In this document: piece after piece, positions 1 through 34,634 of the stretch
How the letters are laid out: each line of letters opens with the position of its first letter
Numbering within the stretch: position 1 is the stretch's first letter
IMG/VR virus record: IMGVR_UViG_3300025466_000007
Coordinates: 1-34,634 of that record
Strand: one strand, 5' to 3'
DNA length: 34,634 nucleotides
From: a virus
Taxonomy: Duplodnaviria; Caudoviricetes
Translations under genes and position numbers: made by a program
Notes under the pieces: generated by a model
What the model saw: the letters and a program-made list of their open reading frames with translations, nothing else
What the model was told of the DNA's origin: nothing
Databases searched by the model: none

Positions 1-127
1 ACGCAAAAAAAGGCATACATCATTGCTGATAACAAGTTGGCGATGAATGCTGGATGGGATATGGAGTTGCTCAAGCTAGAAATCAGCGAATTGGAGGACA
101 AAGACTTCAATATTGAGTTGCTTGGAT
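1..127. repeat. Terminal 127-bp direct repeat, left copy (circular assembly overlap)
   Basis: 1-127 is identical to 34508-34634, and the ParB reading frame continues across the junction. Confidence 0.95.
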
Positions 128-360
128 TTGACCCGTCAGAGCTTCAGCTGGATGAGCCAGATTATTCGGTTTTAGACGATGAGGACATCGAGAAACAGCT
201 GGATGACATGGCGCAAGGGGTACGCAAAGCTATTCAAATCGAATTTGAGCCTGACCACTACGATGAAGCGGTACAGCTGGTGAAATACTGGCGTGAGCAA
301 AACGCTTATGTTGGCTACATGATTATGGATTTTCTGCGGAAAGAGAAAAACAAGGCATGA
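1..360 (+). CDS. ParB/Srx-like N-terminal domain protein, 3' part (full gene 34271..34507 joined to 1..360, about 198 aa)
   Basis: Frame 1 from base 1 reads TQKKAYIIADNKLAMNAGWD, continuous with the ORF starting at 34271. The acidic C-terminal region ends in an ATGA overlap with the kinase. Confidence 0.88.
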   Translation, partial: TQKKAYIIADNKLAMNAGWDMELLKLEISELEDKDFNIELLGFDPSELQLDEPDYSVLDDEDIEKQLDDMAQGVRKAIQIEFEPDHYDEAVQLVKYWREQNAYVGYMIMDFLRKEKNKA

Positions 361-815
361 AATGTTATTATTTGGTTGGCTATCACGGATGCGGTAAGAC
401 AACTCAAGCTAACAAGCTAGAAGCAGAACACCCTATTTTTAACTTCATAGGCGGCAAACCAGGATTGGACGCTATCCCTAATGTTCAAACCCTGATGAAA
501 GAGGTCAAATTAAGCAAAACCGATATGTTTATACACGGTTGCATCTTTCAGACCGAGCCGATGCTCAAACGTTTATCCCTAGCAACAGAGCTTCATATCA
601 TCGTTATGCACACTTTCCCCAAAGAAGTCGAAGCAAGGACATTAGCTAGGGGCGCTGACAGCTACAACATCAAAAAATACAAAACTCACTATTCATTTAT
701 TCGCAAATTAAAAATGTGGATAGACGAATACAACTTTCAGGTTCACATCATTGACAACAATAAATCTGTTGAAGACGTGTACAAACAAATTAAAAAAATA
801 TGTGTGCGATCATAG
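357..815 (+). CDS. P-loop nucleotide-kinase-fold protein, putative hydroxymethyl-pyrimidine DNA kinase
   Basis: N-terminal Walker A GYHGCGKTT after a hydrophobic strand, a lid-like RTLARG motif and an NMP-kinase-like C-terminus (IIDNNKSVEDVY). It lies in an operon with an amino acid:DNA transferase. Confidence 0.75.
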   Translation: MKCYYLVGYHGCGKTTQANKLEAEHPIFNFIGGKPGLDAIPNVQTLMKEVKLSKTDMFIHGCIFQTEPMLKRLSLATELHIIVMHTFPKEVEARTLARGADSYNIKKYKTHYSFIRKLKMWIDEYNFQVHIIDNNKSVEDVYKQIKKICVRS

Positions 816-1399
816 GCTTTGTTAGTAAAAACCCTAGTGATGAAGCGATTAAAACGCTGAAAAAGCTGTTTCTTGAGTCAAAAATTAGGGGTAAACACGC
901 ATACGGGTTTGCGGCTAAAGACAAAAACGGCATTACTGCGGTCAAAGAACACAACCTAAAAGCACTTATCAGCCATATTGATGCGCCCAATTTGCTCATC
1001 GGACATTGTCGGTACTCCACCAGCGGGGATTACAAAGATCACGCCAACAATCAGCCAATACAGTTTAAAGACGAATACATGGCATTCAACGGCACGATTG
1101 ACATGAGAACAAAAGCCGAGATGGAGAATAATTACAACATCGTAATGGAAAGCGACAACGATGGCGAAATCATGCTTCAGTCTAAAGACAGAATGCGCTT
1201 ATTAGACGGCAACATAACGTTTGCTGGGCTATTTTTGAAAGGTGATGAAATCACGGCATTCAGAAACGAACACAGACCCGCTTATTGGGCTGTCAAACAC
1301 GATTCACTCTATGTAGCGTCAACAGCCGACATAATGATTAGAAGTCTGCTTAGACCGATACCTCTGACAGCCAATGAGGTCTATAAATGGACGGCTTGA
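800..1399 (+). CDS. Class II (Ntn-hydrolase) glutamine amidotransferase, stand-alone
   Basis: Catalytic Cys2 (MCAIIG), RG motif, GHCRYSTSG, NNQP, FNGTI oxyanion motif and SDNDGE. Confidence 0.88.
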   Translation: MCAIIGFVSKNPSDEAIKTLKKLFLESKIRGKHAYGFAAKDKNGITAVKEHNLKALISHIDAPNLLIGHCRYSTSGDYKDHANNQPIQFKDEYMAFNGTIDMRTKAEMENNYNIVMESDNDGEIMLQSKDRMRLLDGNITFAGLFLKGDEITAFRNEHRPAYWAVKHDSLYVASTADIMIRSLLRPIPLTANEVYKWTA

Positions 1400-2268
1400 C
1401 TGAATACCTCAGTTATCACCGTCAATCCTCACTAGCGGGGGATATTGACCCCCAAAACGATTGTTTACAATACGTTGCCAACAGATTTGAGCTAAATATG
1501 GAACAGCGCTACTGGTTAGCATTCCTATTCGGTACTTGCTACTGCGCCCCAACAGTCTATTACATATACAACGAATTCCCTGATTACAACACTGTAAACA
1601 TTGACAGGCTTGAAAGATGGTGGAAAGCAAACAAAACACGTTTGTTGTTCCAAACCGACAGACAACGGGTGCGGAGCAACGACCAGTTTGTTCAATCTTT
1701 CATTTCATACCGTCAAATTGTGGGGAGAAATCAAGAGGAACACTTCAGTGCGTTCAAACGCAATGACCCCAAGTCTACCTATGTCAATGCGCTGGAAACA
1801 ATGTCTGAGGTGTTTTCCTTTGGGCGGTTCACCATGTTTATTTACCTAGAAATGGTATCGGTGCTTACTAACTGCAAAATGATACCGATTGACCTTGATT
1901 TAAAAAACGCTGAGAGCTGTCGCAACGGGTTAGCATTAGCATTAGACCGAAAAGACTTATTCACACACGTTGTAGACAAAAAGTTAACAAAACACAATTA
2001 TCAAGACCTAAACACGGGACTATTGAAGATAATTGACGAAGTGGCAAAGATGAACATCAACCACAAAAACCTATTTGCTATTGAAACAACTTTATGCGCT
2101 TACAAAAAAGCAAAGCTGGGTAAACGCTTTGTCGGCTACTACATAGACCGTAACAGGGAAGAAATAGAAAAAATGAGCCAAAACATTCCTCAAGGCGTAG
2201 ACTGGAGCGTATTGTGGGATTTTAGAAAGTCTAATTACGACAAAAAGTACCTGAAAGAGCTAACATGA
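1387..2268 (+). CDS. Amino acid:DNA transferase (aGPT-Pplase clade 2, HhH-glycosylase-like fold)
   Basis: DIDP motif, EQRYWLAFLFGTCY, QTDRQR, HhH-like FGRFTMFIYLE and C-terminal IETTLCAYKK...GYYIDR, all characteristic of the family. Confidence 0.8.
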   Translation: MDGLTEYLSYHRQSSLAGDIDPQNDCLQYVANRFELNMEQRYWLAFLFGTCYCAPTVYYIYNEFPDYNTVNIDRLERWWKANKTRLLFQTDRQRVRSNDQFVQSFISYRQIVGRNQEEHFSAFKRNDPKSTYVNALETMSEVFSFGRFTMFIYLEMVSVLTNCKMIPIDLDLKNAESCRNGLALALDRKDLFTHVVDKKLTKHNYQDLNTGLLKIIDEVAKMNINHKNLFAIETTLCAYKKAKLGKRFVGYYIDRNREEIEKMSQNIPQGVDWSVLWDFRKSNYDKKYLKELT

Positions 2269-3047
2269 AACGTGTAGACCTTATCAAGATTGAACATAAC
2301 GTCAAAATCGGGGATGTTTGCGGTCATATCGAACCTAACATAACAGAAGACAGCATATTTTACGATGGCGATCAACCCGTAGGCTTTTACATCAAAGAAA
2401 TCAAGGGAAAGCTCAAACAGCTGGTGGACGTAGCAAACGCAGAGCTACTCAGCGACAGAGTACCCAAAACCGAAATGAGGCGTTCTAGCGGGATGGCTAA
2501 CCCAGCAAACGAAGTAAACCAGTACAGCACCATTATTGGCTCTTGCCCACCAAAACCGCACATGAAACGCCCGTATCCGATGATTTCAGGTGTTCACAAC
2601 ATTAAATCAGCTCAAACTTTTATCAAAGCAATGCTATTGGCGTGTAAGGAATCTGAAGACTTGATAAGGGAAATTACACCAAGCATATTTGACAATCAAC
2701 TTGCCATCATCAACGAAAAAGTACCACCAAAGTTCCGATTTGGCAAATTATTTACGTCAAGCATCTCAAACTTCAACATTCCAGCGCCATTTCATCGGGA
2801 TGCGGGTAATTTAGAGGGATGCGTCAACGTAATCATCGCAAAGAAAAAAAACGCACGTGGGGGAAACACAACCGTACCCGATTACGGGGCAACAGTTGAC
2901 AGCAGAGACAATTCAATGTTAGTCTACCCAGCATGGCGAAACGTACACGGAGTAACACCGATTGTGCCAACTCAAGAGGGAGGATATCGAAACAGCCTTG
3001 TTTTCTATCCTCTAAAAGCATTCAACAACTACTGGGACGAAAAATAA
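2265..3047 (+). CDS. TET/JBP-family 2-oxoglutarate/Fe(II) dioxygenase
   Basis: HxD (PFHRDAGN), distal His (NVHGVTPI) and RxSLVFY (YRNSLVFY) 2OG-binding motif, as in TET/JBP enzymes. Confidence 0.85.
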   Translation: MKRVDLIKIEHNVKIGDVCGHIEPNITEDSIFYDGDQPVGFYIKEIKGKLKQLVDVANAELLSDRVPKTEMRRSSGMANPANEVNQYSTIIGSCPPKPHMKRPYPMISGVHNIKSAQTFIKAMLLACKESEDLIREITPSIFDNQLAIINEKVPPKFRFGKLFTSSISNFNIPAPFHRDAGNLEGCVNVIIAKKKNARGGNTTVPDYGATVDSRDNSMLVYPAWRNVHGVTPIVPTQEGGYRNSLVFYPLKAFNNYWDEK

Positions 3048-3066: not shown

Positions 3067-3405
3067 ATGCCCGCACTTCACGTACCTACTGACAACGATA
3101 GAAAGCAAGTCGAAATATCGGCTGGGCTTGGTTTGCCTCACGAACAGATCGGGGCGCTTATCGGCATAGACGACAAAACTTTACGCAAGCATTACCGCAA
3201 AGAATTGGATTTTGGTAAGGCTAAATCAAGTGCCGCTATCGCTAGGTCACTTTACAACAAAGCAATGGGCGGGGATACAACAGCAATGATTTGGTGGACA
3301 AAAGCCCAAATGCGTTGGTCTGAGACAGTCAAAAATGAAGTAACAGGCGCTGATGGCGAACCGTTTGACATTCAGATTACCTTTGTAAAGCCAAAAGATG
3401 AGTGA
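3067..3405 (+). CDS. terS: Terminase small subunit
   Basis: HTH (EQIGALIGIDDKTLRKHY), GDTTAMIWWTK and EVTGADG tail; overlaps the terL start. Confidence 0.8.
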   Translation: MPALHVPTDNDRKQVEISAGLGLPHEQIGALIGIDDKTLRKHYRKELDFGKAKSSAAIARSLYNKAMGGDTTAMIWWTKAQMRWSETVKNEVTGADGEPFDIQITFVKPKDE

Positions 3406-4705
3406 AGTAGTCGAATACGACAAAGACGCTATTGGCAGATCACTTGCCAAAATTGAATTTCCGTTAAAGCTGGAATGCCTATTTAACCCGCCTCAAGCAC
3501 GTTACAGGGTACTTTGGGGTGGTAGGGGCGCATCTAAGTCTTGGAACGTAGCAAGGGCACTTCTCATCAAGGGATACAAGAAACAACTGAGAATACTTTG
3601 CGCCCGTGAATATCAAACATCCATTCGAGATTCTGTACATAAGCTGTTGAGCGATCAAATCATAGCTATGAACATGGAATCGTTCTATGAGATTACCCAA
3701 AACAGCATCAGGGGGCTGAATGGCACGGAGTTTGCATTTGTAGGTCTCAAAAACAACGTTGCAAACGTAAAATCATATGAAGGTATTGACATTTGCTGGG
3801 TGGAGGAGGCACAAAGCGTTTCAAAGTTTAGCTACAACGTACTCATACCGACAATACGTAAAGAAAACAGCGAGATATGGATAACTTTCAACCCTGAGCT
3901 GGAAACAGATGAAACGTATCAGCGCTGGGTAATTGCTCCACCAGCTGGGGCTGTTGTACAAAAAATCAACTGGAGCGACAACCCTTGGTTTCCAGAGGTG
4001 CTAAAACTTGAGAAGGACGCACTCAAAGCACGTGACCTTGAGGCGTACAACACGGTCTGGGAAGGCGTTTGTCGTCAAACAGTTGACGGGGCTATATTTG
4101 CAAAAGAGCTACAGATGGCAGAATTGGACGGACGCATTACCCGTGTGCCTTACGATGCAACCAAACCCGTCCATGCGATATTCGATTTGGGTTGGAGTGA
4201 CGCAACAGCCATATGGCTACTACAGTTTATTGGAATGGAAACAAGGATAATTCGGTACATAGAAAACAGCCAACAAACCATTAGTTGGTATTTGTCTCAA
4301 TTACAAACATTCGGGTATGTATATGACACACTTTGGTTGCCTCATGACGCTGAGAACAAAACGTTGGCTGGAAATGGTCGCAGTATTGAAGAAATTGTCC
4401 GAGCTTCAGGCTACAAAACCCGTATAGTGCCAAGAGTGCCTGTTGTAGATTCAATCAATGCCGCCCGTACAATATTTTCAAATTGTTATTTTGATAGAGA
4501 AAATACGCATCAAGGGTTACAATGCCTCAGACATTATCGCTATGAGGTAGACCCTGAGACGGGAATGTTCAGCAAAACGCCTCTACACGATCAATACAGT
4601 CATGGTGCTGATGCCTTTAGGTATATTGGGCTGATGATAAACGAACCTAAAAAACCTATTAGACAAAAAGCAACGATGCAAATACCTACAAGTTGGATGG
4701 GATGA
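3398..4705 (+). CDS. terL: Terminase large subunit (PBSX/Terminase_3 type)
   Basis: Walker A GGRGASKS, CARE, Walker B ICWVEEA, TFNP, and nuclease motifs DLGWSD and HGADAFRY. Confidence 0.95.
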   Translation: MSEVVEYDKDAIGRSLAKIEFPLKLECLFNPPQARYRVLWGGRGASKSWNVARALLIKGYKKQLRILCAREYQTSIRDSVHKLLSDQIIAMNMESFYEITQNSIRGLNGTEFAFVGLKNNVANVKSYEGIDICWVEEAQSVSKFSYNVLIPTIRKENSEIWITFNPELETDETYQRWVIAPPAGAVVQKINWSDNPWFPEVLKLEKDALKARDLEAYNTVWEGVCRQTVDGAIFAKELQMAELDGRITRVPYDATKPVHAIFDLGWSDATAIWLLQFIGMETRIIRYIENSQQTISWYLSQLQTFGYVYDTLWLPHDAENKTLAGNGRSIEEIVRASGYKTRIVPRVPVVDSINAARTIFSNCYFDRENTHQGLQCLRHYRYEVDPETGMFSKTPLHDQYSHGADAFRYIGLMINEPKKPIRQKATMQIPTSWMG

Positions 4706-12512: not shown

Positions 12513-13657
12513 TGGCACAAACAGGGTATACCCCAATACAACATTATTATTCAATTACAGGCGGTAATACTCCTACAACTGGTAATTTGACTTTAGGTGA
12601 AATAGCTATCAATGTAGCAGATCAAAAAGTCTATATGTTGAATTCAGCAAGTAATGCTATTGTTACTCTTGTTGGTACGTTAGGCAATCAAAATTCTAAT
12701 AGCGTATCCATTACAGGCGGTTCAATAAACGGAACTACCATAGGCGCATCAACAGCATCTACTGGAGCGTTTACTACTATTTCTGCTTCAGGCGTGATTA
12801 CGTCTACGGTTTCAACAGGAACAGCGCCATTTACAGTAGCCTCAACTACACAAGTAGCTAATTTAAATTCTGCAACAGCTGGTACAGCTACAAACGCAAC
12901 CAATGTAGCAACAACAGACAATACTTCTAGTTCATCTACTTATTACCCAACTTTAGTTAGTGCAACCAGTGGTAATAATCCAATTACAACATCTAGTACT
13001 AAACTTAGTTTTGTACCTAGTACAGGGGTTTTGAGTACAACTGGACATAATTTAAGTGGTTTAACTGCCTCAAGTGCTGTTGCTACTGATGCAAGCAAAA
13101 ACCTTGTTAGTGTTACAAATACTGGAACTGGTAATAATGTATTAGCTACTTCTCCAACATTGGTCACACCAGCTTTAGGAACTCCATCTTCTGTTAATTT
13201 AAGCAATGCAACTTCTCTTGCAGTAGCCGCTTTGCCTACAGGGTCTGTAATTCAAGTTGTACAGGCAACATTAACAAGTCTTTTTTCAACAACTGCGGCA
13301 TCTTTTACATCTACTGGATTAACAGCTTCAATTACACCTCAATTTTCTACAAGTAAAATTCTTGTTTTAATTTCTACTTATGGATTGGCTTTAGTAGCAA
13401 ATGGACAAGCCAGTTACACAATTTATAGAAATTCAACAAATTTAGCATCTGGTAGTGGGTTGAATCAATCTTTTAGTGAATTAAATGCAAATTTGAGTCC
13501 TTCTCAAGCATCTTTGGCAATTAGTTATTTAGATTCACCATCAACAACATCTTCAACAACATATACTTTATATGCCGCGGCAATAACTTCTGGTGATGCA
13601 GTATATATAAACAATGCGAGTGGCACAGCAGTAATCATATTAATGGAGATTAGATAA
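12512..13657 (+). CDS. Tail fibre protein
   Basis: N-terminal PTTGNLTLGEIAIN anchor motif and C-terminal GSVIQVV...ASITPQFSTSKILV...YLDSPSTTSSTTY tip domain. Confidence 0.72.
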   Translation: MAQTGYTPIQHYYSITGGNTPTTGNLTLGEIAINVADQKVYMLNSASNAIVTLVGTLGNQNSNSVSITGGSINGTTIGASTASTGAFTTISASGVITSTVSTGTAPFTVASTTQVANLNSATAGTATNATNVATTDNTSSSSTYYPTLVSATSGNNPITTSSTKLSFVPSTGVLSTTGHNLSGLTASSAVATDASKNLVSVTNTGTGNNVLATSPTLVTPALGTPSSVNLSNATSLAVAALPTGSVIQVVQATLTSLFSTTAASFTSTGLTASITPQFSTSKILVLISTYGLALVANGQASYTIYRNSTNLASGSGLNQSFSELNANLSPSQASLAISYLDSPSTTSSTTYTLYAAAITSGDAVYINNASGTAVIILMEIR

Positions 13658-13923
13658 TGCAACCCACAATACATGATGCGGTCAGATCAGTATATTCAAA
13701 CGTAGTAACTATTTATGGTAATGACGTTAGTTCTTTAACTTGTTTAGATGTTAATGATGCTGAAGTAATAATTGTTCCTGCAACAGTAGAAACAAAATTA
13801 ACTGAATTACAAACTAACTATACTGCACAACAAATAGCAACTGCTAATGCTAAAGCATCTGCACTAGCTAAGTTAACTGCACTTGGTCTAACAGCAGATG
13901 AAATAAATTCAATAACAACATAA
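13657..13923 (+). CDS. Small fibre-associated protein (putative assembly chaperone)
   Basis: TAATG-coupled to the fibre gene; C-terminal KASALAKLTALGLTADEI motif typical of post-fibre genes. Confidence 0.55.
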   Translation: MQPTIHDAVRSVYSNVVTIYGNDVSSLTCLDVNDAEVIIVPATVETKLTELQTNYTAQQIATANAKASALAKLTALGLTADEINSITT

Positions 13924-13938
13924 TAAGGATATAAAAAA

Positions 13939-15348
13939 ATGTCTTTGACTAAAGTTTCATATTCAATGATAACTGGGGCTTACGCAAATGTGCTTGATTT
14001 TGGCGCTGTTGGTGATGGTTCAAATAATGATGCTAGTGCAATTAATAGTGCAATTTCTTATGTAAATTCTCAAAATGGTGGCACAGTTTATTTTCCAACT
14101 GGAAAATACAACATTGGTTCTACACAACTAACTATTTATCCAAGCATTCGATTAGTTGGAGCCGCAACAAGTGGCGGTGGTCAAACTGGAAATCCAGGAG
14201 CTACTATTTTATATAGTGGAACTGGTGTTTCTGGCGCACCTTTGTATGCAATAAAAGGAACAAATTTAACTAATACTTGTATTGAAAACATCACATTAAA
14301 TGGTGCTGGTAACGCATATACAAATGGAATTTATTTACAAGGTGCTTGGCTTTGTACTATTAAAAATGTAAAAGTTGGTGGTTTTATTGCTGTAAATGGA
14401 TTTGGAATATTAATTGATACTCATCAAGGTGCATTTGGCGCACAACATAATTACATTGAAAAATCAGAATGTTCAGATGGTATTGTTGCATTTATTGGAA
14501 CAAGTGGGGCAGATGAAGTAACTACAACTGTAGTTAATACTTTTAGAGGTTATATGTATCAAGCATATAACTGCCAAGTTACATTTATAAATGCCACGGC
14601 TGAAGGATTTCCAAGTATTGGTTTTGATTTTCAATACACTAATCAAAGCGTAATGATTAATTGTGATTTAGAAGGAAGTGGAACTACTGCAATAAGTATT
14701 GCAAGCGCATCTTCTGTAATGGCTTTTGGGAATACATTTGCAGGATTTACAGGTACAAATAAATATGTTGGAAATTTATCTTCATATACAACTTATGGTG
14801 GTGGACTCCAAATTACTAAAGAAGGGTTATCTTCTGGTAACAATTTTCCTTTTTTAACTTTTGGAAATTTAGCAGATTCAAATTATGTAGGTTATGGTGC
14901 TACATTGAATAGTTCAACTGGTGGCTCACAAGATGGAAGTCCGTTAATTCAAAGGTCAATTAGTGGTACTGTTACACCAGTATGGGAATTTAAAAACGGT
15001 TTAAGAATTGAATATTCTAAAACAATAGCTACAACTGCAACATCATTTTTTACATTAAACACAAACTCAACCAATGGCGGTTCAATTAAAGTTACTGCTA
15101 TTGGAGCAGACACAAGTGGTAATTCATTTTCAGTTTATAAAGAAGCGGTGTATTCTAATAATTTTGGAACTATGTTAATTTCAACTGGAAACGCATTAAC
15201 AACAACTGGAACGACTGATTCTTTCACATTTACTTCTTCAGGTTCTTCATTAATTATTCAATTTGCTGTTGCTGGATCATCTGTGTCAACTGGAGTTAAT
15301 TTTGTAATACAAGTTGATGGTACTTTTACTAACTATGTATTAAATTAA
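13939..15348 (+). CDS. Tailspike / pectate-lyase-like beta-helix depolymerase
   Basis: NVLDFGAVGDG...AINSAI...GGTVYFPTGKY signature followed by beta-helix-like repeats. Confidence 0.85.
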   Translation: MSLTKVSYSMITGAYANVLDFGAVGDGSNNDASAINSAISYVNSQNGGTVYFPTGKYNIGSTQLTIYPSIRLVGAATSGGGQTGNPGATILYSGTGVSGAPLYAIKGTNLTNTCIENITLNGAGNAYTNGIYLQGAWLCTIKNVKVGGFIAVNGFGILIDTHQGAFGAQHNYIEKSECSDGIVAFIGTSGADEVTTTVVNTFRGYMYQAYNCQVTFINATAEGFPSIGFDFQYTNQSVMINCDLEGSGTTAISIASASSVMAFGNTFAGFTGTNKYVGNLSSYTTYGGGLQITKEGLSSGNNFPFLTFGNLADSNYVGYGATLNSSTGGSQDGSPLIQRSISGTVTPVWEFKNGLRIEYSKTIATTATSFFTLNTNSTNGGSIKVTAIGADTSGNSFSVYKEAVYSNNFGTMLISTGNALTTTGTTDSFTFTSSGSSLIIQFAVAGSSVSTGVNFVIQVDGTFTNYVLN

Positions 15349-15361
15349 ACAAGGATAAAAA

Positions 15362-15862
15362 ATGACTGTATATTTATCATCTTTTGCTGGTGCTGGAGCA
15401 CAATTTTTTGATAATAATGGTGTTCCTTTGGCTGGAGGATTTATTTATACTTATTTGGCAGGCACAACAACTCCACAAGCAACTTACACTTCAAATAGTG
15501 GGTCAATAGCTCAAGCAAATCCTATTGTTTTAGATTCTAGTGGTAGAGTTCCTAGCGGAGAAATTTGGTTAAATCAACTTGTATTGTATAAATTTGTACT
15601 TCAAACATCTGCTGGAGTAACAATAGGTACTTATGACAATATAAGTAGTATTGCAGGGTCAATTCCAGTAATTTCAGATTTTACAGGCACAGGAAGCCAA
15701 ACAACCTTTACACTTTCATTATTACCAGTAGGATTAAATACAACTAATGTTTTTATAAATGGTGTCTATCAAAATAAAAATTCATATTCTATTTCTGGCA
15801 CAACATTAACATTTACTCAAGCCCCGCCTGTTACTTCTTTAATTGAAGTAAGTTATGCTTAA
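15362..15862 (+). CDS. Tailspike N-terminal/adaptor-like protein
   Basis: QFFDNNGVPLAGG..YTY.AGTTTP..TY...NPIVLDSSGR particle-attachment-type domain plus a short beta domain; no catalytic domain. Confidence 0.6.
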   Translation: MTVYLSSFAGAGAQFFDNNGVPLAGGFIYTYLAGTTTPQATYTSNSGSIAQANPIVLDSSGRVPSGEIWLNQLVLYKFVLQTSAGVTIGTYDNISSIAGSIPVISDFTGTGSQTTFTLSLLPVGLNTTNVFINGVYQNKNSYSISGTTLTFTQAPPVTSLIEVSYA

Positions 15863-15871
15863 AGGTTAAAA

Positions 15872-16849
15872 ATGACTACACCAAATGATATTATTAGCAG
15901 AGCATTAAAAGACATTGGCGCATTGGAGGCTGGAGAAGTCCCAACAGCTGATGCGGCACAAGACGCTTTTAATATGTTATTAAACATGCTTGACCAATGG
16001 TCAAATGAAGAAATGATGGTGTACTATCAGTCTGAAATAATTTGGACTCTTACGTCAGGTCAAACTCAATACACTATTGGACCAGGAGGAGAAATAGGTG
16101 CTGTGTTTACTGGTTCTATATCAGGAACAACTTTAACTGTTACTTCAATCACTTCAGGGGCAATAAACCTGAATCAGACAATCAGCGGTACAGGTATAAC
16201 AAATGGCACTAAGATTGTTGCTTTTGGTAGTGGAGCTGGGGGAAATATCAATGAAGCGGGAACATACCAACTCAATGTAAATTACCCAACAGGAGTGTCT
16301 TCAACAACAATCAACGCTTTTTATCCACGTCCATTAGCAATCAATTCGGGGTTTGTACGTATAGCTACCAATAGCAACGGTTATCCGATTGTGAATGGCG
16401 GTTTAGATTATCCTTTGACTGTTTTAGACTATGACAGCTATCAATTGATTGGTCTAAAAACGCTAAATGGACCATGGCCCAAAGCATTTTATTATCAGCC
16501 AACAGAAATTTTAGGTAACATTTTCGTATGGCCTAATCCAGCCCAAGGCGAAATGCATCTTTTTGCCGATACTTTGTTTTCTCAATATACCAATTTAACA
16601 GATACGATTACATTGCCACAAGGCTATAACATGGCTCTTGAATGGTGTTTGGCTGAATATTTAATGCCTTCATATGGCAAGGCTTCTCCAACACAAATAC
16701 AAATGATTCAACAATTTGCGGCAAAAGGCAAATCTACGGTCAAACGTACAAATATGAAACCACCCAAAGTGTCTAGATATGATGAAGTCATTACTACATC
16801 ACGTTCCAAAGATGCTGGGTGGATTTTGTCAGGCGGTTTCTTTAGATAA
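15872..16849 (+). CDS. Head-to-tail adaptor, P22 gp4-like
   Basis: [11 protein letters not shown]...[14 protein letters not shown]-terminus and LPQGY..AL...LAEYL C-terminus; lies upstream of the gp10-like gene. Confidence 0.72.
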
Positions 16850-16859
16850 AGGAAAAGAT

Positions 16860-17132
16860 ATGATTTATTTATTTATTGTCTTTTGTTTGCTCCAATGTGC
16901 TGATATTTACACAACTTGGAAAGCCTTGTTTACAAATGTTGGACATGAGGCTAATCCAATTATGGCTTGGTTGTTTTCTGAAGTTGGATTAAAAGCAGGA
17001 TTGGTGATTGCCAAAGTTATGATTTGTGCAATTATTTATTATTTTGTTACTCAAGATTGGTTATTAGCAATATTAGATATTGCTTATGCTGAGATTATTT
17101 GGAACAACTTTAAAGTATTAAAAAATGGCTGA
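16860..17132 (+). CDS. Small membrane protein (DUF5658-like)
   Basis: AAGGA RBS before ATG 16860; D..TT...G.EANP motif and three hydrophobic segments. Confidence 0.65.
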   Translation: MIYLFIVFCLLQCADIYTTWKALFTNVGHEANPIMAWLFSEVGLKAGLVIAKVMICAIIYYFVTQDWLLAILDIAYAEIIWNNFKVLKNG

Positions 17133-18588
17133 TTTTGGCTTTGTTGGTCCATCATATGAAGCGCCTAGTATTTACCAGGATGCTCAAGAATGTATCAATT
17201 TTTATCCTGAAATAGACCCTCTTAAACAACCAGGTGTAAGAGGTGTTGTTGCGCTATATCCAACTCCAGGTTTAACGCAAATTATTCAACCTGAAATTGG
17301 TCCAGTAAGGGCTATGAGGAATTTATCGGGTAATTCAATACTTTTGGTTGTAATAAATGCTTCTGTGTATAAAGTAACAACATCTTACACATACACGTTA
17401 ATTGGCAATCTTAGAACTAGTACAGGTTTTGTATCTATATCAGACAATATTACTTCTAATAACGGTTTAACAGCATATATTGTAGATGGTCCAAATCGTT
17501 ACACATGGATTGCCAAAAGTAATACGTTTGAAATTTTGCCGTCAACTGATGGACCATGGCAAGGCGCTTCAGTTGTAGACGTTTGCGACAATTACAACAT
17601 TTATAACAACGTAGGAACTCAAAATTGGGCTTGTACAGACCTTGGATCAAGTTTATCGACAAATGCTTATTACGGTACAAAAGATGCCGCACCTGACCCT
17701 ATTGTTACTTTAATTGCAAATCACAGACAAGTTTATTTACTAGGTCAACAAACAACTGAAGTTTGGGTTGATGTTGGAAATGTCGTAACAGGTATTATTT
17801 CATTTCCATTCCAGCGTATTCAAGGAACAATGATGCAACACGGTTGTGCGGCTATCGGTTCTGTTGCTCAATTTTCTGAAATGTTTATGTTCGTATCTAA
17901 AGACAACAGAGGTCAAGGAATTATTGGGGTTGTACAAGGATACACTTTTACAAGAATTTCTACTCACGCTGTTGAACAAACGTTATTGAATCAAACCATA
18001 TCAGATGCTATTGCTTATACATATCAACTTGAAGGTCATGAATTTTATGTTGTAAATTTTCCTTCAGTCAATATAACTTGGGTTTATGATCTTGCTAGTC
18101 AAATGTGGCACAAATGGTTATCTTGGGATGGCACTCAATTTAATAGACATCGTTCTAATTGTGGTGCGTTTTTCAATAATTCTTATTTGGTGGGAGATTA
18201 TGCTAACGGAATAATTTATTCTTTAGACAACAACAATTACACAGAAAACGGTTCAACTATTCGCAGAATCAGACGTGCGCCTCACATTACAAGCGATTTA
18301 CAAAGACAATATTTTTCTGAGCTTCAAATTCAATTTCAGCCTGGAGTTGGTTTGGAAACAGGACAAGGTAAAAACCCACAAGCTATGTTGCGCTGGAGTA
18401 ATGATGGTGGATCAACGTACTCTAACGAACATTGGGTAAGTATTGGGGCTGTTGGTAAATACAAAAACCGTGCTATTTGGAGACGTTTAGGTTGGTCAAG
18501 AGACAGAATTTTTGAAGTTGCAATAACAGACCCTGTTAAAGCAGTTATTGTTTCAGCAAATTTAAAAGCTGAAGTTGGGGAAAATTGA
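17125..18588 (+). CDS. Packaged-DNA stabilization / tail hub protein, P22 gp10-like
   Basis: ECINFYPE, LYPTPGL, YQLEGHEFY and LRWSNDGG...WRRLG..RDRIFE motifs. Confidence 0.88.
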   Translation: MADFGFVGPSYEAPSIYQDAQECINFYPEIDPLKQPGVRGVVALYPTPGLTQIIQPEIGPVRAMRNLSGNSILLVVINASVYKVTTSYTYTLIGNLRTSTGFVSISDNITSNNGLTAYIVDGPNRYTWIAKSNTFEILPSTDGPWQGASVVDVCDNYNIYNNVGTQNWACTDLGSSLSTNAYYGTKDAAPDPIVTLIANHRQVYLLGQQTTEVWVDVGNVVTGIISFPFQRIQGTMMQHGCAAIGSVAQFSEMFMFVSKDNRGQGIIGVVQGYTFTRISTHAVEQTLLNQTISDAIAYTYQLEGHEFYVVNFPSVNITWVYDLASQMWHKWLSWDGTQFNRHRSNCGAFFNNSYLVGDYANGIIYSLDNNNYTENGSTIRRIRRAPHITSDLQRQYFSELQIQFQPGVGLETGQGKNPQAMLRWSNDGGSTYSNEHWVSIGAVGKYKNRAIWRRLGWSRDRIFEVAITDPVKAVIVSANLKAEVGEN

Positions 18589-18794
18589 TGGCAACACAAC
18601 CAAATTCCAACATCAACATTCCACAAGGACAATTTCTTGATCAAACAACTGGAAGACCGTCTTTACCTTGGCTGTTGTGGTTACAAAATCCTAGTTTTAT
18701 TCAAACTACAACTGGTCAACAAACAATAAACGGAAACGAATATATAAATGGCACTTTAAACGCAATAGGCGGCATCTCTGGAGGTGTATTTTGA
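18588..18794 (+). CDS. Small tail protein (needle/plug position)
   Basis: TGATG-coupled after the gp10-like gene; FLDQTTGRPSLPW motif. Confidence 0.5.
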   Translation: MATQPNSNINIPQGQFLDQTTGRPSLPWLLWLQNPSFIQTTTGQQTINGNEYINGTLNAIGGISGGVF

Positions 18795-19300
18795 TGGAGC
18801 TTGTACTTACCCCCAGTAGCGAATTATCGTTTGATTCCGATGATTCTAAGCATCAATATGAAGTTTTGGAACAGTTAGCCAAAGTCCCAAACCGTCAAGA
18901 GATTGAACAATTACAGACTGAAATTGCGAAAATGGAACAACCAGTATTTGATACTGAACATTATTTCAGCGGTGGTATGTATTGCCGAAAATTGCCAAGA
19001 AAAGCTGGAACGTTGATTGTCGGGAAAGTACACAAAAAAGAACATTTTTTTATGTGTGCCAAAGGAGAGATTATTGCTTGGACAGAAAAAGGGATGCGTA
19101 AACTGAGTGCGGGCGATATAATTGAATGCAAAACAGGCACTAAACGTGTTACTTTAGCATTAACAGATGCCATTGGAATTACGGTACACATTACCGATAA
19201 AACCAATATTGATGAAATTGAAACAGACCTGGTTGAGCCTGATGAGTTGTCAATGTATGCCCCAGGAAACGTCTTGAAAACAAAAGTTTTAGGGAGTTAG
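18794..19300 (+). CDS. Cupin-like hypothetical protein
   Basis: HYFSGGMYCR...AGTLIVGKVHKKEH...GTKR double-stranded beta-helix-like pattern. Confidence 0.55.
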   Translation: MELVLTPSSELSFDSDDSKHQYEVLEQLAKVPNRQEIEQLQTEIAKMEQPVFDTEHYFSGGMYCRKLPRKAGTLIVGKVHKKEHFFMCAKGEIIAWTEKGMRKLSAGDIIECKTGTKRVTLALTDAIGITVHITDKTNIDEIETDLVEPDELSMYAPGNVLKTKVLGS

Positions 19301-20024: not shown

Positions 20025-21542
20025 ATGGCATCTTTTAATTTTGATACTTCAGCGATACAAGCCAAACCACCACAAGTTGAGCAAATGAAACTCAGCGATA
20101 TGCTGAACATGGCTTCAAAAGGGTATGAGCTAAAGAAAATGAAAGAGCTGTACCCAGCTATGATTGAAAAAGCTAAAGCTGAATCTGAATCGGCTCAATC
20201 TAGCGCTTTAATGAAAGATATTGAAGCATCACAAGCAACAATTCGCAACAAAGAACAAATAAAGCTCAATGCGTTCATGCAAGACCCAAAAAATTACATG
20301 GACGAAAATGGCGACATAGATTTGACTAAAGCCAACAAAGCTATACCAATTATTGCGCCAATGACAGGAACAGATCATTTAAGTAAATTGTCTACACTTG
20401 CTCAAAACAATACTCTTGCTAAAGACGCTAAACTTAAATTTAGTCAAAACGAAAGAGAAATTGTTGCGTCTACTTATGGCGCATTGGGGCGTGCTAACGT
20501 AACAGACCCAAAAGAATATGCTAGTGCTTTAGACAATTTAGTTAAAGCATTTCCCGATAGTCCTTCAATGAAACAATACGCTGATGCGGCTAAAGGTAAT
20601 TTGATGATGGTTGGAGATCATTCAAAATTACCCGCTGTTGCTATTGGTACGGCTAATCAGTTGCTTACATTGCCACAACAACAAACAGCATTTACTCCTA
20701 CAACAAATGTTGCCACAGTTGGCGGTCAACAAGTGCCCGTCACAACAACACCTTCTGCTACTGGGGGCGCACCTCAAGTTAATGTTGGTCAATTTGGAGG
20801 AACAACACCACAAACAAAACCACCAGCTAGTGCGCCTGGAATGCCTAAAATTGTTAACGAAGACCCAAATCTTACATATAGTGGACCAGCACAACCGTTA
20901 CAACTCAATCCAGTTCAAGAAGGTTTATTCAAAGCTGGTCAAGAAAACTTTAACAAATTACCCGCACTTCAACAACAGGCTCAAGAAGCTAAAGAATACG
21001 TGCGAGGCGCAACGAACGCTATTGATGCGGCTAAAGGTAGTACCCTTACTCAAAAACTGCAAGCGGGTGGCAAATATGTGTTTGAAAACCCAGAATTAGA
21101 TCGTTTAACTAAAAACTTGGCTGGTGTGCTTGTTTCTAATGCAAACACAATGGGCTTGAATCGGTCTGATGCTTCTTTTGCCGATGCTGAAAAACTAAGC
21201 GGTAGTGCCAAAATATCGAATGAAGCACTTAAAGACATATTGCAAAGGGCGGATGCTCAAGCAAGTGCGGCTGATAAGTATGCTACTGCTGTTAAAAATT
21301 ACCGTGAAAAGCGTGGCGAAATCAATGCTAGTATTCATGAAGGAAGATTCAAATCAGCATGGTCTAATGCTTATGATTCAAAAATATTCCAAATGGATAA
21401 CATTGCAAATTCTAATTTGCCTGATGAAGAAAAAACAGCACGCATACAAGATTTGACTAAAAATATGTCGCCAAGCGCATACACAAAATTTGTAAATGAT
21501 GCTAAAGTAATTCATCGTCTTGAGCAAGGAAAATACCAATGA
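20025..21542 (+). CDS. Putative DNA ejection protein (gp20 position)
   Basis: Large helical Ala/Lys/Gln-rich protein in the ejection-gene position. Confidence 0.55.
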   Translation: MASFNFDTSAIQAKPPQVEQMKLSDMLNMASKGYELKKMKELYPAMIEKAKAESESAQSSALMKDIEASQATIRNKEQIKLNAFMQDPKNYMDENGDIDLTKANKAIPIIAPMTGTDHLSKLSTLAQNNTLAKDAKLKFSQNEREIVASTYGALGRANVTDPKEYASALDNLVKAFPDSPSMKQYADAAKGNLMMVGDHSKLPAVAIGTANQLLTLPQQQTAFTPTTNVATVGGQQVPVTTTPSATGGAPQVNVGQFGGTTPQTKPPASAPGMPKIVNEDPNLTYSGPAQPLQLNPVQEGLFKAGQENFNKLPALQQQAQEAKEYVRGATNAIDAAKGSTLTQKLQAGGKYVFENPELDRLTKNLAGVLVSNANTMGLNRSDASFADAEKLSGSAKISNEALKDILQRADAQASAADKYATAVKNYREKRGEINASIHEGRFKSAWSNAYDSKIFQMDNIANSNLPDEEKTARIQDLTKNMSPSAYTKFVNDAKVIHRLEQGKYQ

Positions 21543-23926
21543 CAGACGTAGCTGATGATGTAGACGTACCTGGTCTCAAGTATTTGAAGCCTGTCGCACC
21601 TACTGCGTCAGCTACAACTGCTCCAGCTACTGAAGCGCCCCCCATCAATTCTGATTTACAAGATCGTATTTCAAGGCTTAATGACGAATGGAAAACACGC
21701 AAAGACCTTAACCCAAAAGGTTTGGATTTGCCAATCACAAGCAAATCACGCACATACGATCAAGAAAAAAAATTATATGATGCTTGGATTGCTAGTGGTA
21801 AAAAAGGTAATTTAGTCGCATTTCCTGGTACTAGCAAACACGAAAGCGGAGATGCTTTTGATCTTTTGCCAACTGTTCCTGACGAATTGTTAAGCAAATA
21901 CGATTTGCACAGACCTTTTGGAGCAAAAGACCCCGTACATGTTGAATTAAAACCTGGTACTGTCACGGCTCAAGCTGATGACATAGATGTGCCTGGACTT
22001 AAATATTTAACGCCTCCTAGCACGGTTACAGCACAAAAAACAGCCAAAACAACCCCGTCAATTACTTTGCCAACAACGCAAGAATTGAAAAAAACTGCTG
22101 GTGAAACAATATACAACCCTGAATGGTGGGCTAAAGACATTGCGGCAAAAGCTGACGTTGCTTATGGCGGTCTATTGGGCGCTGGACAATTTGTTGCTAC
22201 ACCATTTGCTAAAGCGGCAGATTATTTGACTAATTCTACGGCTGGTACAGACGTATTGAATCGTGTAGCGGATTTTGCTAGTCATCCTGTTGGTAAAGCA
22301 ATGGGCATCACTAATGACCCCGTATATCAAAAAGAAGTTGCTACAAAAATATTGGGTACGATTGCTCAATATGCTGACAAACCAATCTCATACATAGCTG
22401 AACAAACAGGATTACCCAAAGACGAAGTATCTTGGTATGCACAAGCGGCTGGTATCAAATTAGCACCAGTTGTCGGAAAAGCTGTTGCTGAAGGCGCTGG
22501 TAAAGTAAAAACTGCGGCTATTGAGGGCGCTGAAAATGTTGGCAAAGCTAAAGAACAAGTACAACAACAGTTTAAAACGCTAAAAGAAACAATGAAGCCT
22601 GAAGCAAACCCAAATTTGCGTAGCATTGGTGCGGCTGAAGCTGATAAGGTTTCTGTGCGTAAAGCTAATGCTCAAGATTTGTGGGAGCCAATGGACTTAG
22701 AAAGAAGTCAGCTGACCAGGGATTTTGGCGATGTAAATTGGGCAAGGGAACACGCAAAAGACCCTGTTGCTGGAAAATTGTTTCGTGATTTGTACGCAGA
22801 TCAAAACGCTAAAGTTGCTACCAATTTCCAAAAAGCTATTAACAATACGGGCGCTGAATTAACAGGCGTTGAGCGTTCTGAACTTGGTCAAAAAATAAAC
22901 GATGTTGTTGACACATACAAAAAAGATCGTTATCAAAAAGTTAGTGAAGCCTATAATGCGGCAGATAAAGCTGGTGAAACACTTGAACAAGTTTCATATA
23001 AACCTTTGCTTGATTACATCAACAATAAACGTCCAACCGTAAAAAAACAAAATCCTATTCTCAGTACGATTGAAGAAGAATTGGCACACAATGACCCAAT
23101 TCAAATAAGAGAAGTACTAGACAAAGAAGGAAAAAAAGTACAAGAAGAATATCAAAATGGCACAATCAATTTGCGTCAATTCGAGGATATTCGTAAACTA
23201 ATTGCTGAAGAAACAGAACAAGGCACATCTAACGGTTTTCATGGCAATCAATTGCGTAAAACCATAGACCAATTGACAGCCAACAAAGGCGGCGAATTAT
23301 ACAAAACAGCACGTAAACTCAACACAGATTACATGACTGAGTTTGAAGACACGCCTACTGTTAAAAACATTACAGCACTCAAAAAAGGCACGGTTGACAG
23401 GGTTGTTCCATTAGAACAATTACCCGAAAAATTGTTACTCAGCGCTACAAAAGATCAAGTACAACAAGTGTTTAACACTTTAACTAAAGCTGGACCAGAA
23501 GGTCAGCAAATGATAAATGAGCTAAAAGGGGTTTTGGGCGAACATTTGCGTGACCAAACATTCCAAGGCGTTAACAGAGACGTACATGGAAATTATGTAC
23601 CATCTGCGCCTAAACTTAATGCCGCATTGGAAAAGTTAGACAAAAGCGGAAAATTGGATTTGGTGTTTGGTAAAAAAGATGCTGAACGTTTTAGAACGCT
23701 TAATGAAGTTGTACAGGATATTCGTACAGTACCTGAAGGTTCAGTTAACTATTCGGGTACTGCATCTAACCTTAAAACAATGTTGGCTGATATAGCGGGT
23801 TCATACGCTTTAACAGGCGTACCAGCACCATTAATTATGGGCGCAAAATATACTGCAAATCAATTTAAAACGCTTAGAGACGTCAATAGGGTCAAAGACT
23901 TTATTGATTTTGGAAAAACAAAATAA
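21539..23926 (+). CDS. Large DNA ejection protein (gp16 position) with an N-terminal M15-type Zn peptidase domain
   Basis: ITSKSRTYDQE...PGTSKHESGDAFD...DPVHVE (SxHxxGxAxD and D/ExxH motifs) and C-terminal NYSGTA. Confidence 0.72.
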   Translation: MTDVADDVDVPGLKYLKPVAPTASATTAPATEAPPINSDLQDRISRLNDEWKTRKDLNPKGLDLPITSKSRTYDQEKKLYDAWIASGKKGNLVAFPGTSKHESGDAFDLLPTVPDELLSKYDLHRPFGAKDPVHVELKPGTVTAQADDIDVPGLKYLTPPSTVTAQKTAKTTPSITLPTTQELKKTAGETIYNPEWWAKDIAAKADVAYGGLLGAGQFVATPFAKAADYLTNSTAGTDVLNRVADFASHPVGKAMGITNDPVYQKEVATKILGTIAQYADKPISYIAEQTGLPKDEVSWYAQAAGIKLAPVVGKAVAEGAGKVKTAAIEGAENVGKAKEQVQQQFKTLKETMKPEANPNLRSIGAAEADKVSVRKANAQDLWEPMDLERSQLTRDFGDVNWAREHAKDPVAGKLFRDLYADQNAKVATNFQKAINNTGAELTGVERSELGQKINDVVDTYKKDRYQKVSEAYNAADKAGETLEQVSYKPLLDYINNKRPTVKKQNPILSTIEEELAHNDPIQIREVLDKEGKKVQEEYQNGTINLRQFEDIRKLIAEETEQGTSNGFHGNQLRKTIDQLTANKGGELYKTARKLNTDYMTEFEDTPTVKNITALKKGTVDRVVPLEQLPEKLLLSATKDQVQQVFNTLTKAGPEGQQMINELKGVLGEHLRDQTFQGVNRDVHGNYVPSAPKLNAALEKLDKSGKLDLVFGKKDAERFRTLNEVVQDIRTVPEGSVNYSGTASNLKTMLADIAGSYALTGVPAPLIMGAKYTANQFKTLRDVNRVKDFIDFGKTK

Positions 23927-33287: not shown

Positions 33288-33524
33288 ATGGCTGAGACAG
33301 ATTCTACAAAGACTTGCAAAGACTGTACATACTTGCAACAGCAACAAAATACGCATTTAGGCGTGTGCAGAAGATACCCGATATATCAAAGTCGGCATAT
33401 AAATGAATGGTGCGGTGAATTTTCCCCACTAATGCTCGAATTACCCGTTATTTCTCTACCAATGTTAGACATTGAGGAAAACGACAAACCAAAACGCAAA
33501 ATGTCTAGGAGGGTTCAACCATGA
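33288..33524 (+). CDS. Small Cys-rich (Zn/Fe-S-binding-like) protein
   Basis: CKDC...CRRYP...WCGEF pattern; GGAGG RBS. Confidence 0.65.
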   Translation: MAETDSTKTCKDCTYLQQQQNTHLGVCRRYPIYQSRHINEWCGEFSPLMLELPVISLPMLDIEENDKPKRKMSRRVQP

Positions 33525-33799
33525 AACCCTTAAGAGACAAATTATTTGTTAGACCAGAAAAACGCATCAAATCAGAGCTGTATGTACAAACAGCTGAAGT
33601 TGATACTGTCGGCATCGTGGTCGCAGTTGGGGATGAAGCCCAAGCAGAAGGGCTAAATGTAGGTGATAAGGTCTATTTTGGCACTTTAGCCAAGGATTAC
33701 AAAGACGAATATCTCAAATACACAGAGTTTAAAGACAAAGGCGAACGCCTGATTGTCATGTCTTGGCAAGACGTTTGTTTTGTTGAGGAGCAAGAATGA
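33521..33799 (+). CDS. groES: GroES/Cpn10-like co-chaperonin
   Basis: MKPLRDKLFV, GIVVAVG, VGDKVYF and ..DV C-terminal motifs. Confidence 0.8.
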   Translation: MKPLRDKLFVRPEKRIKSELYVQTAEVDTVGIVVAVGDEAQAEGLNVGDKVYFGTLAKDYKDEYLKYTEFKDKGERLIVMSWQDVCFVEEQE

Positions 33800-33999: not shown

Positions 34000-34099
34000 A
34001 ACCGAGGTTAAAGCGGGTAAACCCGTAAAACAAGCTGTTGCCATAGCGTACAGCGAGAAACGTGAAGCCGAAAAACGTGACCAAAAGAGGAAAAAATGA
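33950..34099 (+). CDS. 49-aa basic conserved phage peptide (not in ORF track)
   Basis: MPLKKSKSPQAFKENIKTEVKAGKPVKQAVAIAYSEKREAEKRDQKRKK*; AAGGAG RBS; ATGA overlap with the next gene. Confidence 0.7.
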   Translation: MPLKKSKSPQAFKENIKTEVKAGKPVKQAVAIAYSEKREAEKRDQKRKK

Positions 34100-34299
34100 T
34101 TACATTCAAAAGTTTAACTGTTAAAGAAGTCGAAACAATCCTGGCTGGGTTGATGGAATTGCCTAAAAAGCTGTCTGATGAGTTACACGCCAAGCTACAC
34201 GCTGACGCAACTGCTCAATATCAAGCTGTTGTAAAAGCAACAGAACAAACCGCCCCAGCTGAAGCCGCCAATGAAACACCCTCAACAGCGCAAAGTTAA
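34096..34299 (+). CDS. Hypothetical protein
   Basis: GAGG RBS; LTVKEVETILAGLMELP motif. Confidence 0.55.
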   Translation: MITFKSLTVKEVETILAGLMELPKKLSDELHAKLHADATAQYQAVVKATEQTAPAEAANETPSTAQS

Positions 34300-34634
34300 C
34301 GAACTAATCCCCTACATTAACAATAGTAGGACGCACTCTGATGCTCAAGTCGCACAAATAGCGGCAAGCATCAGGGAGTTTGGCTGGACAAACCCGATAC
34401 TGATTGACGGAGAAAACGGCATCATAGCGGGACACGGACGGCTCAAGGCGGCAATGCTATTGAATATGGAGGAAGTGCCCATCATAGAGCTGTCTCACTT
34501 GTCTGAAACGCAAAAAAAGGCATACATCATTGCTGATAACAAGTTGGCGATGAATGCTGGATGGGATATGGAGTTGCTCAAGCTAGAAATCAGCGAATTG
34601 GAGGACAAAGACTTCAATATTGAGTTGCTTGGAT
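34271..34634 (+). CDS. ParB/Srx-like N-terminal domain protein, 5' part (continues through the circular junction)
   Basis: MKHPQQRKVNELIPYINNSRTHSDAQVAQIAASIREFGWTNPILIDGENGIIAGHGRLKAA..., a ParB-like domain with the GHGR motif. Confidence 0.88.
   Translation, partial: MKHPQQRKVNELIPYINNSRTHSDAQVAQIAASIREFGWTNPILIDGENGIIAGHGRLKAAMLLNMEEVPIIELSHLSETQKKAYIIADNKLAMNAGWDMELLKLEISELEDKDFNIELLG
34508..34634. repeat. Terminal 127-bp direct repeat, right copy
   Basis: Identical to 1-127. Confidence 0.95.

Follow-up and report, generated by a model that had tools for sequence, protein, structure and literature searches.

The stretch of DNA analysed here (the window) is the whole of IMG/VR virus record IMGVR_UViG_3300025466_000007, 34,634 nucleotides from a virus of the Caudoviricetes. 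The record holds a phage genome of 34,507 bp that is circular and apparently complete, its two ends sharing a repeat of 127 nt; it is classed as a direct-terminal-repeat genome with 100% completeness. Across the circular junction lies a cassette of five genes, which encode a ParB-like protein, a small P-loop kinase, a glutamine amidotransferase (GATase), an amino acid:DNA transferase (AADT) and a TET/JBP-type dioxygenase. An earlier reading of the sequence (the original prediction) described these genes as a self-contained operon for the post-replicative hypermodification of DNA. Here we describe the cassette and its relatives and propose a pathway in which the glutaminase would supply nitrogen to thymine in DNA. 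The features are as follows.

34271..34507, plus strand: ParB-like protein, 5' part; nucleotide-binding domain with GHGR at 34430-34441 (ParB_N E 2.2e-5; phrog_620 E 1.9e-52)
1..360, plus strand: ParB-like protein, 3' part; acidic linker and C-terminal domain of the KAIQIEF type, continuing from 34507 via the circular junction
357..815, plus strand: small P-loop kinase, 152 aa, GYHGCGKT; predicted 5-hydroxymethyluracil (5hmU) DNA kinase of a divergent subfamily
800..1399, plus strand: stand-alone class II (N-terminal nucleophile, Ntn) GATase domain, 199 aa, with a Met-Cys start and without a synthase domain
1387..2268, plus strand: AADT of the GATase-linked lineage, 293 aa; DIDP, FGRFTMFIYLE, ETTLC
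2265..3047, plus strand: TET/JBP-type Fe/2-oxoglutarate dioxygenase, 260 aa; H177-R-D179, H228, R242-N-S-L-V-F-Y
3067..4705, plus strand: small and large terminase, directly 3' of the cassette (family and PHROG matches)
34508..34634: terminal repeat, 127 nt, identical to 1-127; circular assembly

The five overlapping genes are real and intact, and all of the motifs originally named for them were recovered. Neighbouring genes overlap by 4, 16, 13 and 4 nt from ParB through the dioxygenase, and the cassette, ParB included, measures 3284 bp, in agreement with the predicted size of about 3.3 kb. ParB had been placed within 1..3047. Its 3' part does lie there, in 1-360, but the 5' part with the GHGR motif is found at the other end of the window. 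The protein is 198 aa long across the junction; in L001 and L002 its gene is uninterrupted, with 100% identity. The description as a self-contained operon is not supported. A gene at 34096-34299 overlaps the ParB start, the small terminase begins 19 nt past the dioxygenase stop, and the number of promoter-like sites is close to that in shuffled sequence (7 vs 9.5 in one scan; 13 vs 8.1, standard deviation 2.7, in another). Promoter and terminator scans of the window defined no operon boundary.

Profile searches confirmed the family assignments in part. AADT matches ADDT (PF18724, E 2.9e-19) and GATase matches GATase_6 (E 1.9e-8), both above the cut-off. Tet_JBP (PF12851), the only Pfam match of the dioxygenase, fell just under it (E 3.4e-8; 33.3 bits vs a cut-off of 34.9), as did ParB_N, and the kinase gave weak P-loop matches only.

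The predicted AADT-glutaminase pair and its relatives

The GATase consists of a glutaminase domain alone and most resembles those of PurF and GlmS. Residues C2, R30, R71, Y72, N97, G98 and D121 are invariant in 45 sequences, and the equivalents of Arg73, Asn-Gly and Asp123 presumably serve their usual class II glutaminase roles. R30 and Y72 align with GlmS Arg26 and Trp74, residues that in that enzyme connect the two active sites and open the channel for ammonia (PMC7000685).

A binding model of AADT with GATase scored 0.92 in three runs, the best of three controls scoring 0.00. Contacts agreed between runs to at least 96%, with a partner pLDDT of 94. The pass mark of this test is reached by 116 of 157 solved complexes and by 2 of 215 mismatched pairs, rates that are approximate with our own alignments. 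The GATase face in the model interface includes residues 28-33 and 72-74, and the interface residues are more conserved than the rest of the proteins (0.88 vs 0.74, p 0.003; 0.82 vs 0.59, p 0.0001). On the AADT surface, the motifs R[FY][ED] and G[VI]xW are present in 21 of 22 GATase-linked representatives and in none of 9 unlinked ones. The docking score is not readily explained by likeness to a solved pair, because a profile search found no solved relative of the AADT lineage; PDB sequence searches with the AADT likewise returned no match, PUGT included. The GATase is predicted to dock on the AADT through the face that corresponds to the ammonia channel of GlmS.

The catalytic residues of the transferase are conserved. 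D21, E233, T234 and C237 correspond to PUGT D24, E243, T244 and C247, and the retained E/T pair coordinates uracil O4 in PUGT. The glycine-binding W146 and K150 of PUGT are replaced by F148 and I152. The lysine equivalent to K150 is absent from all 81 GATase-linked AADTs and kept in the amine transferases of M6, PaMx11, phiW-14 and SH-Ab 15599, of which phiW-14 and SH-Ab 15599 lie outside our quick tree of 31 rows and were scored in the residue comparison only. No cultured phage with the GATase/AADT subfamily of the window was found. The best AADT identity was 29%, and the best GATase in cultured phages, among the best 25 of 160 matches, was 30.7% identical and from LUZ24-like phages. P12024L has a glycosyltransferase instead. 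A divergent AADT-like protein without GATase or Pfam match, its catalytic positions altered (P for D, I for E), is found in L149-L152 between ParB, kinase and a window-type dioxygenase.

When loci were collected by GATase, 79 of 80 contained an AADT, and the sole exception is truncated by the end of its contig. This figure is used in place of the 103/103 co-occurrence, which is biased by AADT-first sampling. Co-occurrence in other genomes, which had been proposed as a check, was found: of the 103 unique GATase loci, 28 have the exact five-gene order, that of the window among them. The commonest order, in 29 of the 103, is ParB-dioxygenase(C1)-GATase-GNAT-AADT-kinase, and the AADT lineage of the window also accompanies two other dioxygenase types and a second kinase type, in different gene orders. 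A GNAT is encoded in 54 of 103 GATase-linked AADT loci, a lower bound since the profile missed divergent GNATs (L138, L220). The GNAT profile matches PaMx11 gp48, the acetyltransferase of 5-aminomethyl-deoxyuridine (5-NmdU) (98%, E 2.6e-13). The flavoenzyme that makes 5-NmdU from glycine was found in none of these 103 loci, and no pyridoxal phosphate (PLP) decarboxylase was found near any of their AADTs. An amidoligase replaces the GNAT in two loci. L226:581-4260 and L227:4001-7696 carry GATase, AADT, amidoligase (PF12224), an LMWPc phosphatase fold and kinase, with no dioxygenase in the fetched DNA. L220 is a 63,694-bp contig binned in a Paceibacterota metagenome-assembled genome. It carries kinase-GATase-AADT-GNAT and equals the viral contig L225 in length and in its GATase.

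Relatives of the terminase could be judged in 42 of 80 cases, where there was enough upstream DNA or a dioxygenase was present. As 38 of these 42 have no upstream dioxygenase, the cassette is an accessory, modular insert, and its predicted portability holds. Three of the other four belong to the species of the window.

Dioxygenase, ParB, kinase and the likely substrate

The iron triad H177, D179 and H228 and the 2-oxoglutarate-binding R242 are invariant in 29 dioxygenase sequences. The model (pLDDT 92) finds human TET2 as its best fold match, with template modelling scores of 0.67-0.70 vs 0.37-0.50 for FTO/AlkB. This ranking rules out an AlkB or prolyl-hydroxylase identity and upholds the TET/JBP assignment. 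By sequence the dioxygenase is a subfamily outside the tested 5mYOX clade C1 (PMC13229309), and two motifs typical of it were found in none of the 12 supplementary files of that study. It is 53.7% identical to a gene of the cultured Prochlorococcus phage MED4-184, and 33% identical to the dioxygenase of L059 over only 90 aa. A profile search with the subfamily gave 3970 clusters at E 1e-5, some of which may be other subfamilies. The putative activity is oxidation of thymine or 5-methylcytosine (5mC) in DNA. The label of this family in phrog_6059, queuine tRNA-ribosyltransferase, is a database mislabel.

The window dioxygenase type is not restricted to this cassette. Other loci pair it with FkbM methyltransferases, with a TET-associated glycosyltransferase or with other AADTs. 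It lies beside ParB and an FkbM-family methyltransferase at L153:3620-5744 (phage MED4-184) and in 34 loci such as L087 and L102-L115, which suggests O-methylation of 5hmU.

ParB comprises nucleotide-binding and C-terminal domains without the DNA-binding domain, as in the ParB-dependent C1 subclass. In a set of 112 unique ParBs encoded next to a dioxygenase, C-terminal type and dioxygenase type go together, and no cross-over was seen. Dioxygenases of the window subfamily have their own type in 55 of 66 cases (strict motif; the other 11 are unclassified) and C1 dioxygenases have theirs in 37 of 40, the other type being found in neither. The N-terminal types are mixed across dioxygenase types (42 and 19), and the C-terminal profiles of the two types do not align (hhalign 0.1%). 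This pattern fits a cognate activator. ParB, which the original prediction treated as a bystander, is likely the activator of the dioxygenase. The expectation that 5-hydroxymethyl-deoxyuridine would appear with the TET enzyme alone is probably wrong: 5mYOX176 yields about 1% 5hmU alone and 35% with ParB, and it needs its C-terminal extension (PMC13229309). A tandem ParB pair precedes the dioxygenase in L240, L255, L269 and L282.

The kinase model has the nucleoside monophosphate kinase fold and a GxxGxGK[TS] P-loop, and its G36-x-D38 recurs in the proven 5hmU DNA kinases. Its profile matches one that contains M6 gp54 and PaMx11 gp49 (hhalign 96.4%, E 1.2e-9; no negative control). Beside the same AADT lineage the window-type and the canonical kinase are mutually exclusive (28 vs 59 of 98 unique AADT loci, both in none), and the window type also adjoins a GATase-free AADT in L142. 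The window kinase most likely fills the same slot as the canonical 5hmU DNA kinase. The proven kinases of PaMx11 and M6 are mislabelled as terminase small subunit (L155:11218-11787; L156:11686-12249). At L140:2075-3594 a GNAT, present as its N-terminal half, shares the reading frame of the AADT, and a kinase intermediate between both types follows.

Six-frame searches of the genome, in which the positive controls matched, gave no match to C5-methyltransferase (PF00145) or to thymidylate synthase/dUMP hydroxymethylase (PF00303). The original prediction was correct on both absences. Its further statement that a polymerase is lacking agrees with PHROG scans of the called open reading frames, which found no polymerase family; no six-frame polymerase search stands behind it. 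A C5-methyltransferase is present in 5 of 40 related records and in none of the 8 that share the gene order of the window. In another set of 40 records the only thymidylate-synthase-family gene was that of the PaMx11 control. The AADT of L059 is 57% identical to that of the window, and the dioxygenase next to it matches the proven 5mYOX176 at all but about 16 of 302 positions (counted by eye). Because there is no methyltransferase, the O4-binding residues are kept and the L059 AADT is paired with a near copy of 5mYOX176, thymine in DNA is the likely substrate, as had been proposed.

Proposed pathway, alternatives and role

The five genes probably convert thymine in finished DNA to 5-NmdU, the phosphorylated 5hmU being attacked by glutaminase-derived ammonia. 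In the first step, which has been demonstrated for a different subfamily, the dioxygenase would hydroxylate thymine to 5hmU with its cognate ParB as the likely activator. The kinase would phosphorylate the hydroxyl to give 5-phosphomethyl-deoxyuridine (5-PmdU). M6 gp54 is known to do this, and profile, fold and gene slot suggest it here. Cys237 of the AADT would add to C6 and expel the phosphate to form an exocyclic methylene; the residues are conserved, and the mechanism is proposed and mutant-supported for the M6 and ViI enzymes. The glutaminase, which the model docks by its ammonia-channel face, would then deliver ammonia to the methylene. The free amine would be the end product in the window phage, which has no acylating enzyme. 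Only some thymines of the host-replicated DNA would be converted, after replication, and the place of the cassette immediately ahead of the terminase genes points to a late modification, prior to packaging. The modification would most likely block host nucleases.

Direct amination to 5-NmdU is the simplest reading because of the docking face, the lineage-specific AADT surface, the acylating neighbours and the lack of a flavoenzyme. The chances seem about even that AADT and glutaminase form a two-subunit, glutamine-dependent amidotransferase that acts on polymeric DNA and writes a free, likely cationic aminomethyl group on thymine. It would be fed by this large dioxygenase/ParB subfamily and a minimal kinase, and the 3.3-kb pathway would need only host DNA, O2, 2-oxoglutarate, ATP and glutamine.

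Several observations weigh against this pathway. Conserved patches can attract the docking model, and the three controls did not include an AADT lacking a GATase. As the GATase-linked AADTs group as a single lineage (support 68 in the quick tree), the correlations among them stem from one origin and not many. The kinase has no HMUDK_HMUD1 or Ploopntkinase3 match, though the proven PaMx11 gp49 is likewise below the Pfam cut-off (E 0.002), and His60 (H60-G61) stands where the proven kinases carry the Glu of an E-G motif. The dioxygenase is 17-21% identical to clade C1 representatives, whereas the tested C1 enzymes are 26-62% identical among themselves. It also lacks their C-terminal extension, with 19 residues from R242 vs 31-46 in 8 C1 representatives. 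Several tested C1 dioxygenase/ParB pairs were inactive (PMC13229309), and 5mYOX173, tested and inactive in E. coli, comes from a contig (L272) that carries a GATase of the window subfamily and an AADT. The window AADT is about 28% identical to ViI-type proteins vs 13-14% to M6/PaMx11. Since the ViI serine O-transferase is nearer and also lacks W146/K150 (L/N), the missing lysine does not by itself mean ammonia.

The likeness to ViI bears on a rival explanation that we regard as unlikely, in which the AADT would attach a whole amino acid or another small nucleophile, for instance serine, as happens in ViI, or glutamine by way of its alpha-amine. The docked Ntn enzyme would tailor the adduct or serve a side reaction, and the final base would be larger than 5-NmdU. 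The nearest cultured homologues are indeed ViI-type serine transferases, which have the FGR[LF]S and EFP motifs in common with the window AADT. Any amine, for example the one on a transferred amino acid, could be the substrate of a GNAT. However, a PLP decarboxylase and a flavoenzyme are missing near all 103 GATase-linked AADTs, the glutaminase keeps its glutamine-site and channel residues, and the cassette offers it no other synthase partner. We give still less weight, and the least of all, to a route through further oxidation. Thymine would be oxidised on to 5-formyl- or 5-carboxyuracil, the kinase would make an acyl-phosphate, and ammonia would give 5-carbamoyluracil or an imine-derived base. 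The tested phage thymine dioxygenases do oxidise iteratively in vitro (PMC13229309), and His60 sets the window kinase apart. The AADT nonetheless keeps the Cys and Glu required for methylene chemistry on 5-PmdU, the two kinase types exclude each other beside the same AADT lineage, and an amide would give the GNAT no amine.

The substrate could also be 5mC made by host methyltransferases, the product being a sparse aminomethyl-cytosine. Tested enzymes oxidise 5mC and thymine comparably in vitro (PMC13229309), and the best fold matches of the dioxygenase are 5mC enzymes, although the match list held no thymine-dioxygenase structure. The lack of a C5-methyltransferase gene in the genome and its rarity in related records, the conserved O4-binding residues and the near copy of a proven thymine dioxygenase beside the same AADT lineage make this explanation very improbable. 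Slightly less remote, at perhaps an outside chance, is that the proposed chemistry occurs but only sparsely and at specific sequences, with a role in packaging, DNA mechanics or regulation and not in restriction evasion, or that the dioxygenase/kinase pair is little active. Targeted modification has been argued from low, context-limited oxidation (PMC13229309), the cassette abuts the terminase genes, and the avoidance of T-containing palindromes is not relaxed. On the other side, all five genes are intact, their order recurs in more than a quarter of the unique GATase loci, and the cassette is accessory among terminase relatives and therefore not needed for packaging.

Site composition gives no support to the anti-restriction role, which is plausible. 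The window avoids CCGG (0 vs 84 expected, both strands), CGCG (4 vs 129) and GGCC (8 vs 115), but not GCGC. Relatives without the cassette also avoid CCGG, CGCG and GGCC (median 0.515), and this avoidance probably reflects host restriction enzymes. Palindrome avoidance was rejected as evidence for a modified base, as host-driven and uninformative. The avoidance of T-containing palindromes is no weaker than in cassette-free relatives (0.755 vs 0.76), which is a further point against the proposed function. Three of the four cassette-bearing terminase relatives in this comparison are the same species, and the values of distant cassette phages are 0.26-0.89 and 0.0-1.07.

The amination pathway predicts a single mass (257 u), a single nitrogen source and one heterodimer with named interface residues, in the smallest cassette. 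If true, it would extend ammonia-channelling amidotransferase chemistry to DNA and allow DNA to be amine-labelled in a few enzymatic steps. The analysis also points to an abundant dioxygenase subfamily outside the assays of the 2026 screen (PMC13229309), as far as the supplements of that study show.

Elsewhere the genome encodes portal, scaffold, head, head-closure and ejection proteins, a Sak annealing protein, an exonuclease and a replication initiator. A GroES-like co-chaperonin is encoded at 33521-33799, a short way upstream of the cassette. Positions 13000-19000 have low GC (0.33-0.38) and span the tail spike and fibre genes. A 795-aa protein follows the ejection gene (21539-23926) and has a weak endolysin-family match over residues 66-145.

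Relationship to known modification systems

The type of gene set and the first step are already published; the proposed nitrogen step is unpublished in the literature covered. Lee 2022 described metavirome clusters of TET_JBP, 5-HMUDK and AADT, and made the same proposal that TET_JBP replaces the dUMP hydroxymethylase (PMC8989533). O'Toole 2026 demonstrated post-replicative oxidation of thymine to 5hmU on DNA by ParB-activated phage dioxygenases (PMC13229309). The novelty claimed for a hydroxymethyl group supplied on DNA by TET/JBP was therefore overstated. Lee 2022 also reported that the kinase adds one phosphate and that AADT needs its Cys and Glu. Amidotransferases and amidoligases are co-associated with those clusters, and the ParB-dependent 5mYOX subclass is consistently linked with GATases, P-loop kinases and AADTs (PMC13229309). 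In the passages covered of PMC8989533 and PMC13229309 the amidotransferase is named as a neighbour, with no product or role assigned to it; here it is made into one predicted test. No published product of GATase-containing clusters and no glutamine-dependent route to 5-NmdU were found in the literature covered, which left out subscription journals. Most clade C and D enzymes were reported to be inactive on 5mC (Burke 2021), and a similar cluster has been described in a cultured phage (Daspit 2025).

The window resembles the clade C1 systems of O'Toole 2026 in its ParB and TET/JBP pair, the lack of a C5-methyltransferase and the GATase, kinase and AADT neighbours. It differs in its dioxygenase, ParB C-terminal type and kinase subfamily, and the work on C1 (PMC13229309) tested step 1 only. 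PaMx11 (gp49 kinase, gp46 glycine transferase, gp47 flavoenzyme, gp48 acetyltransferase; PMC8989533, PMC11472151) has the same predicted intermediate and base and the same catalytic D, E, T and C. A gp48-like GNAT occurs in many relatives of the window, though not in the window genome. In PaMx11, however, 5hmU is made at the nucleotide level and the amine comes through glycine and a flavoenzyme, whereas the window pathway would start on DNA and take its nitrogen from glutamine in one step.

The nearest characterised AADT by sequence is ViI gp247, a serine:DNA transferase that leads to 5-(2-aminoethoxy)methyl-deoxyuridine (5-NeOmdU). ViI uses a PLP decarboxylase, its AADT lacks R[FY]E and GVxW, and no GATase was found in the 10 kb fetched. 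Among cultured phages, Rhodococcus phage Tonitrus and Mycobacterium phage Zemanar (PMC11955845) also carry ParB, TET/JBP and AADT genes where the genome begins, ahead of the terminase. They have no GATase in the fetched regions, and the Tonitrus AADT keeps the W and K.

The closest parallels to the proposed nitrogen step are PurF and GlmS, with which the window shares an Ntn glutaminase, the N-terminal Cys and the channel residues equivalent to Arg26 and Trp74. Ammonia displacing a phosphate-type leaving group resembles the chemistry of PurF. Unlike those enzymes, the window glutaminase is a separate protein, and its acceptor would be a base in polymeric DNA.

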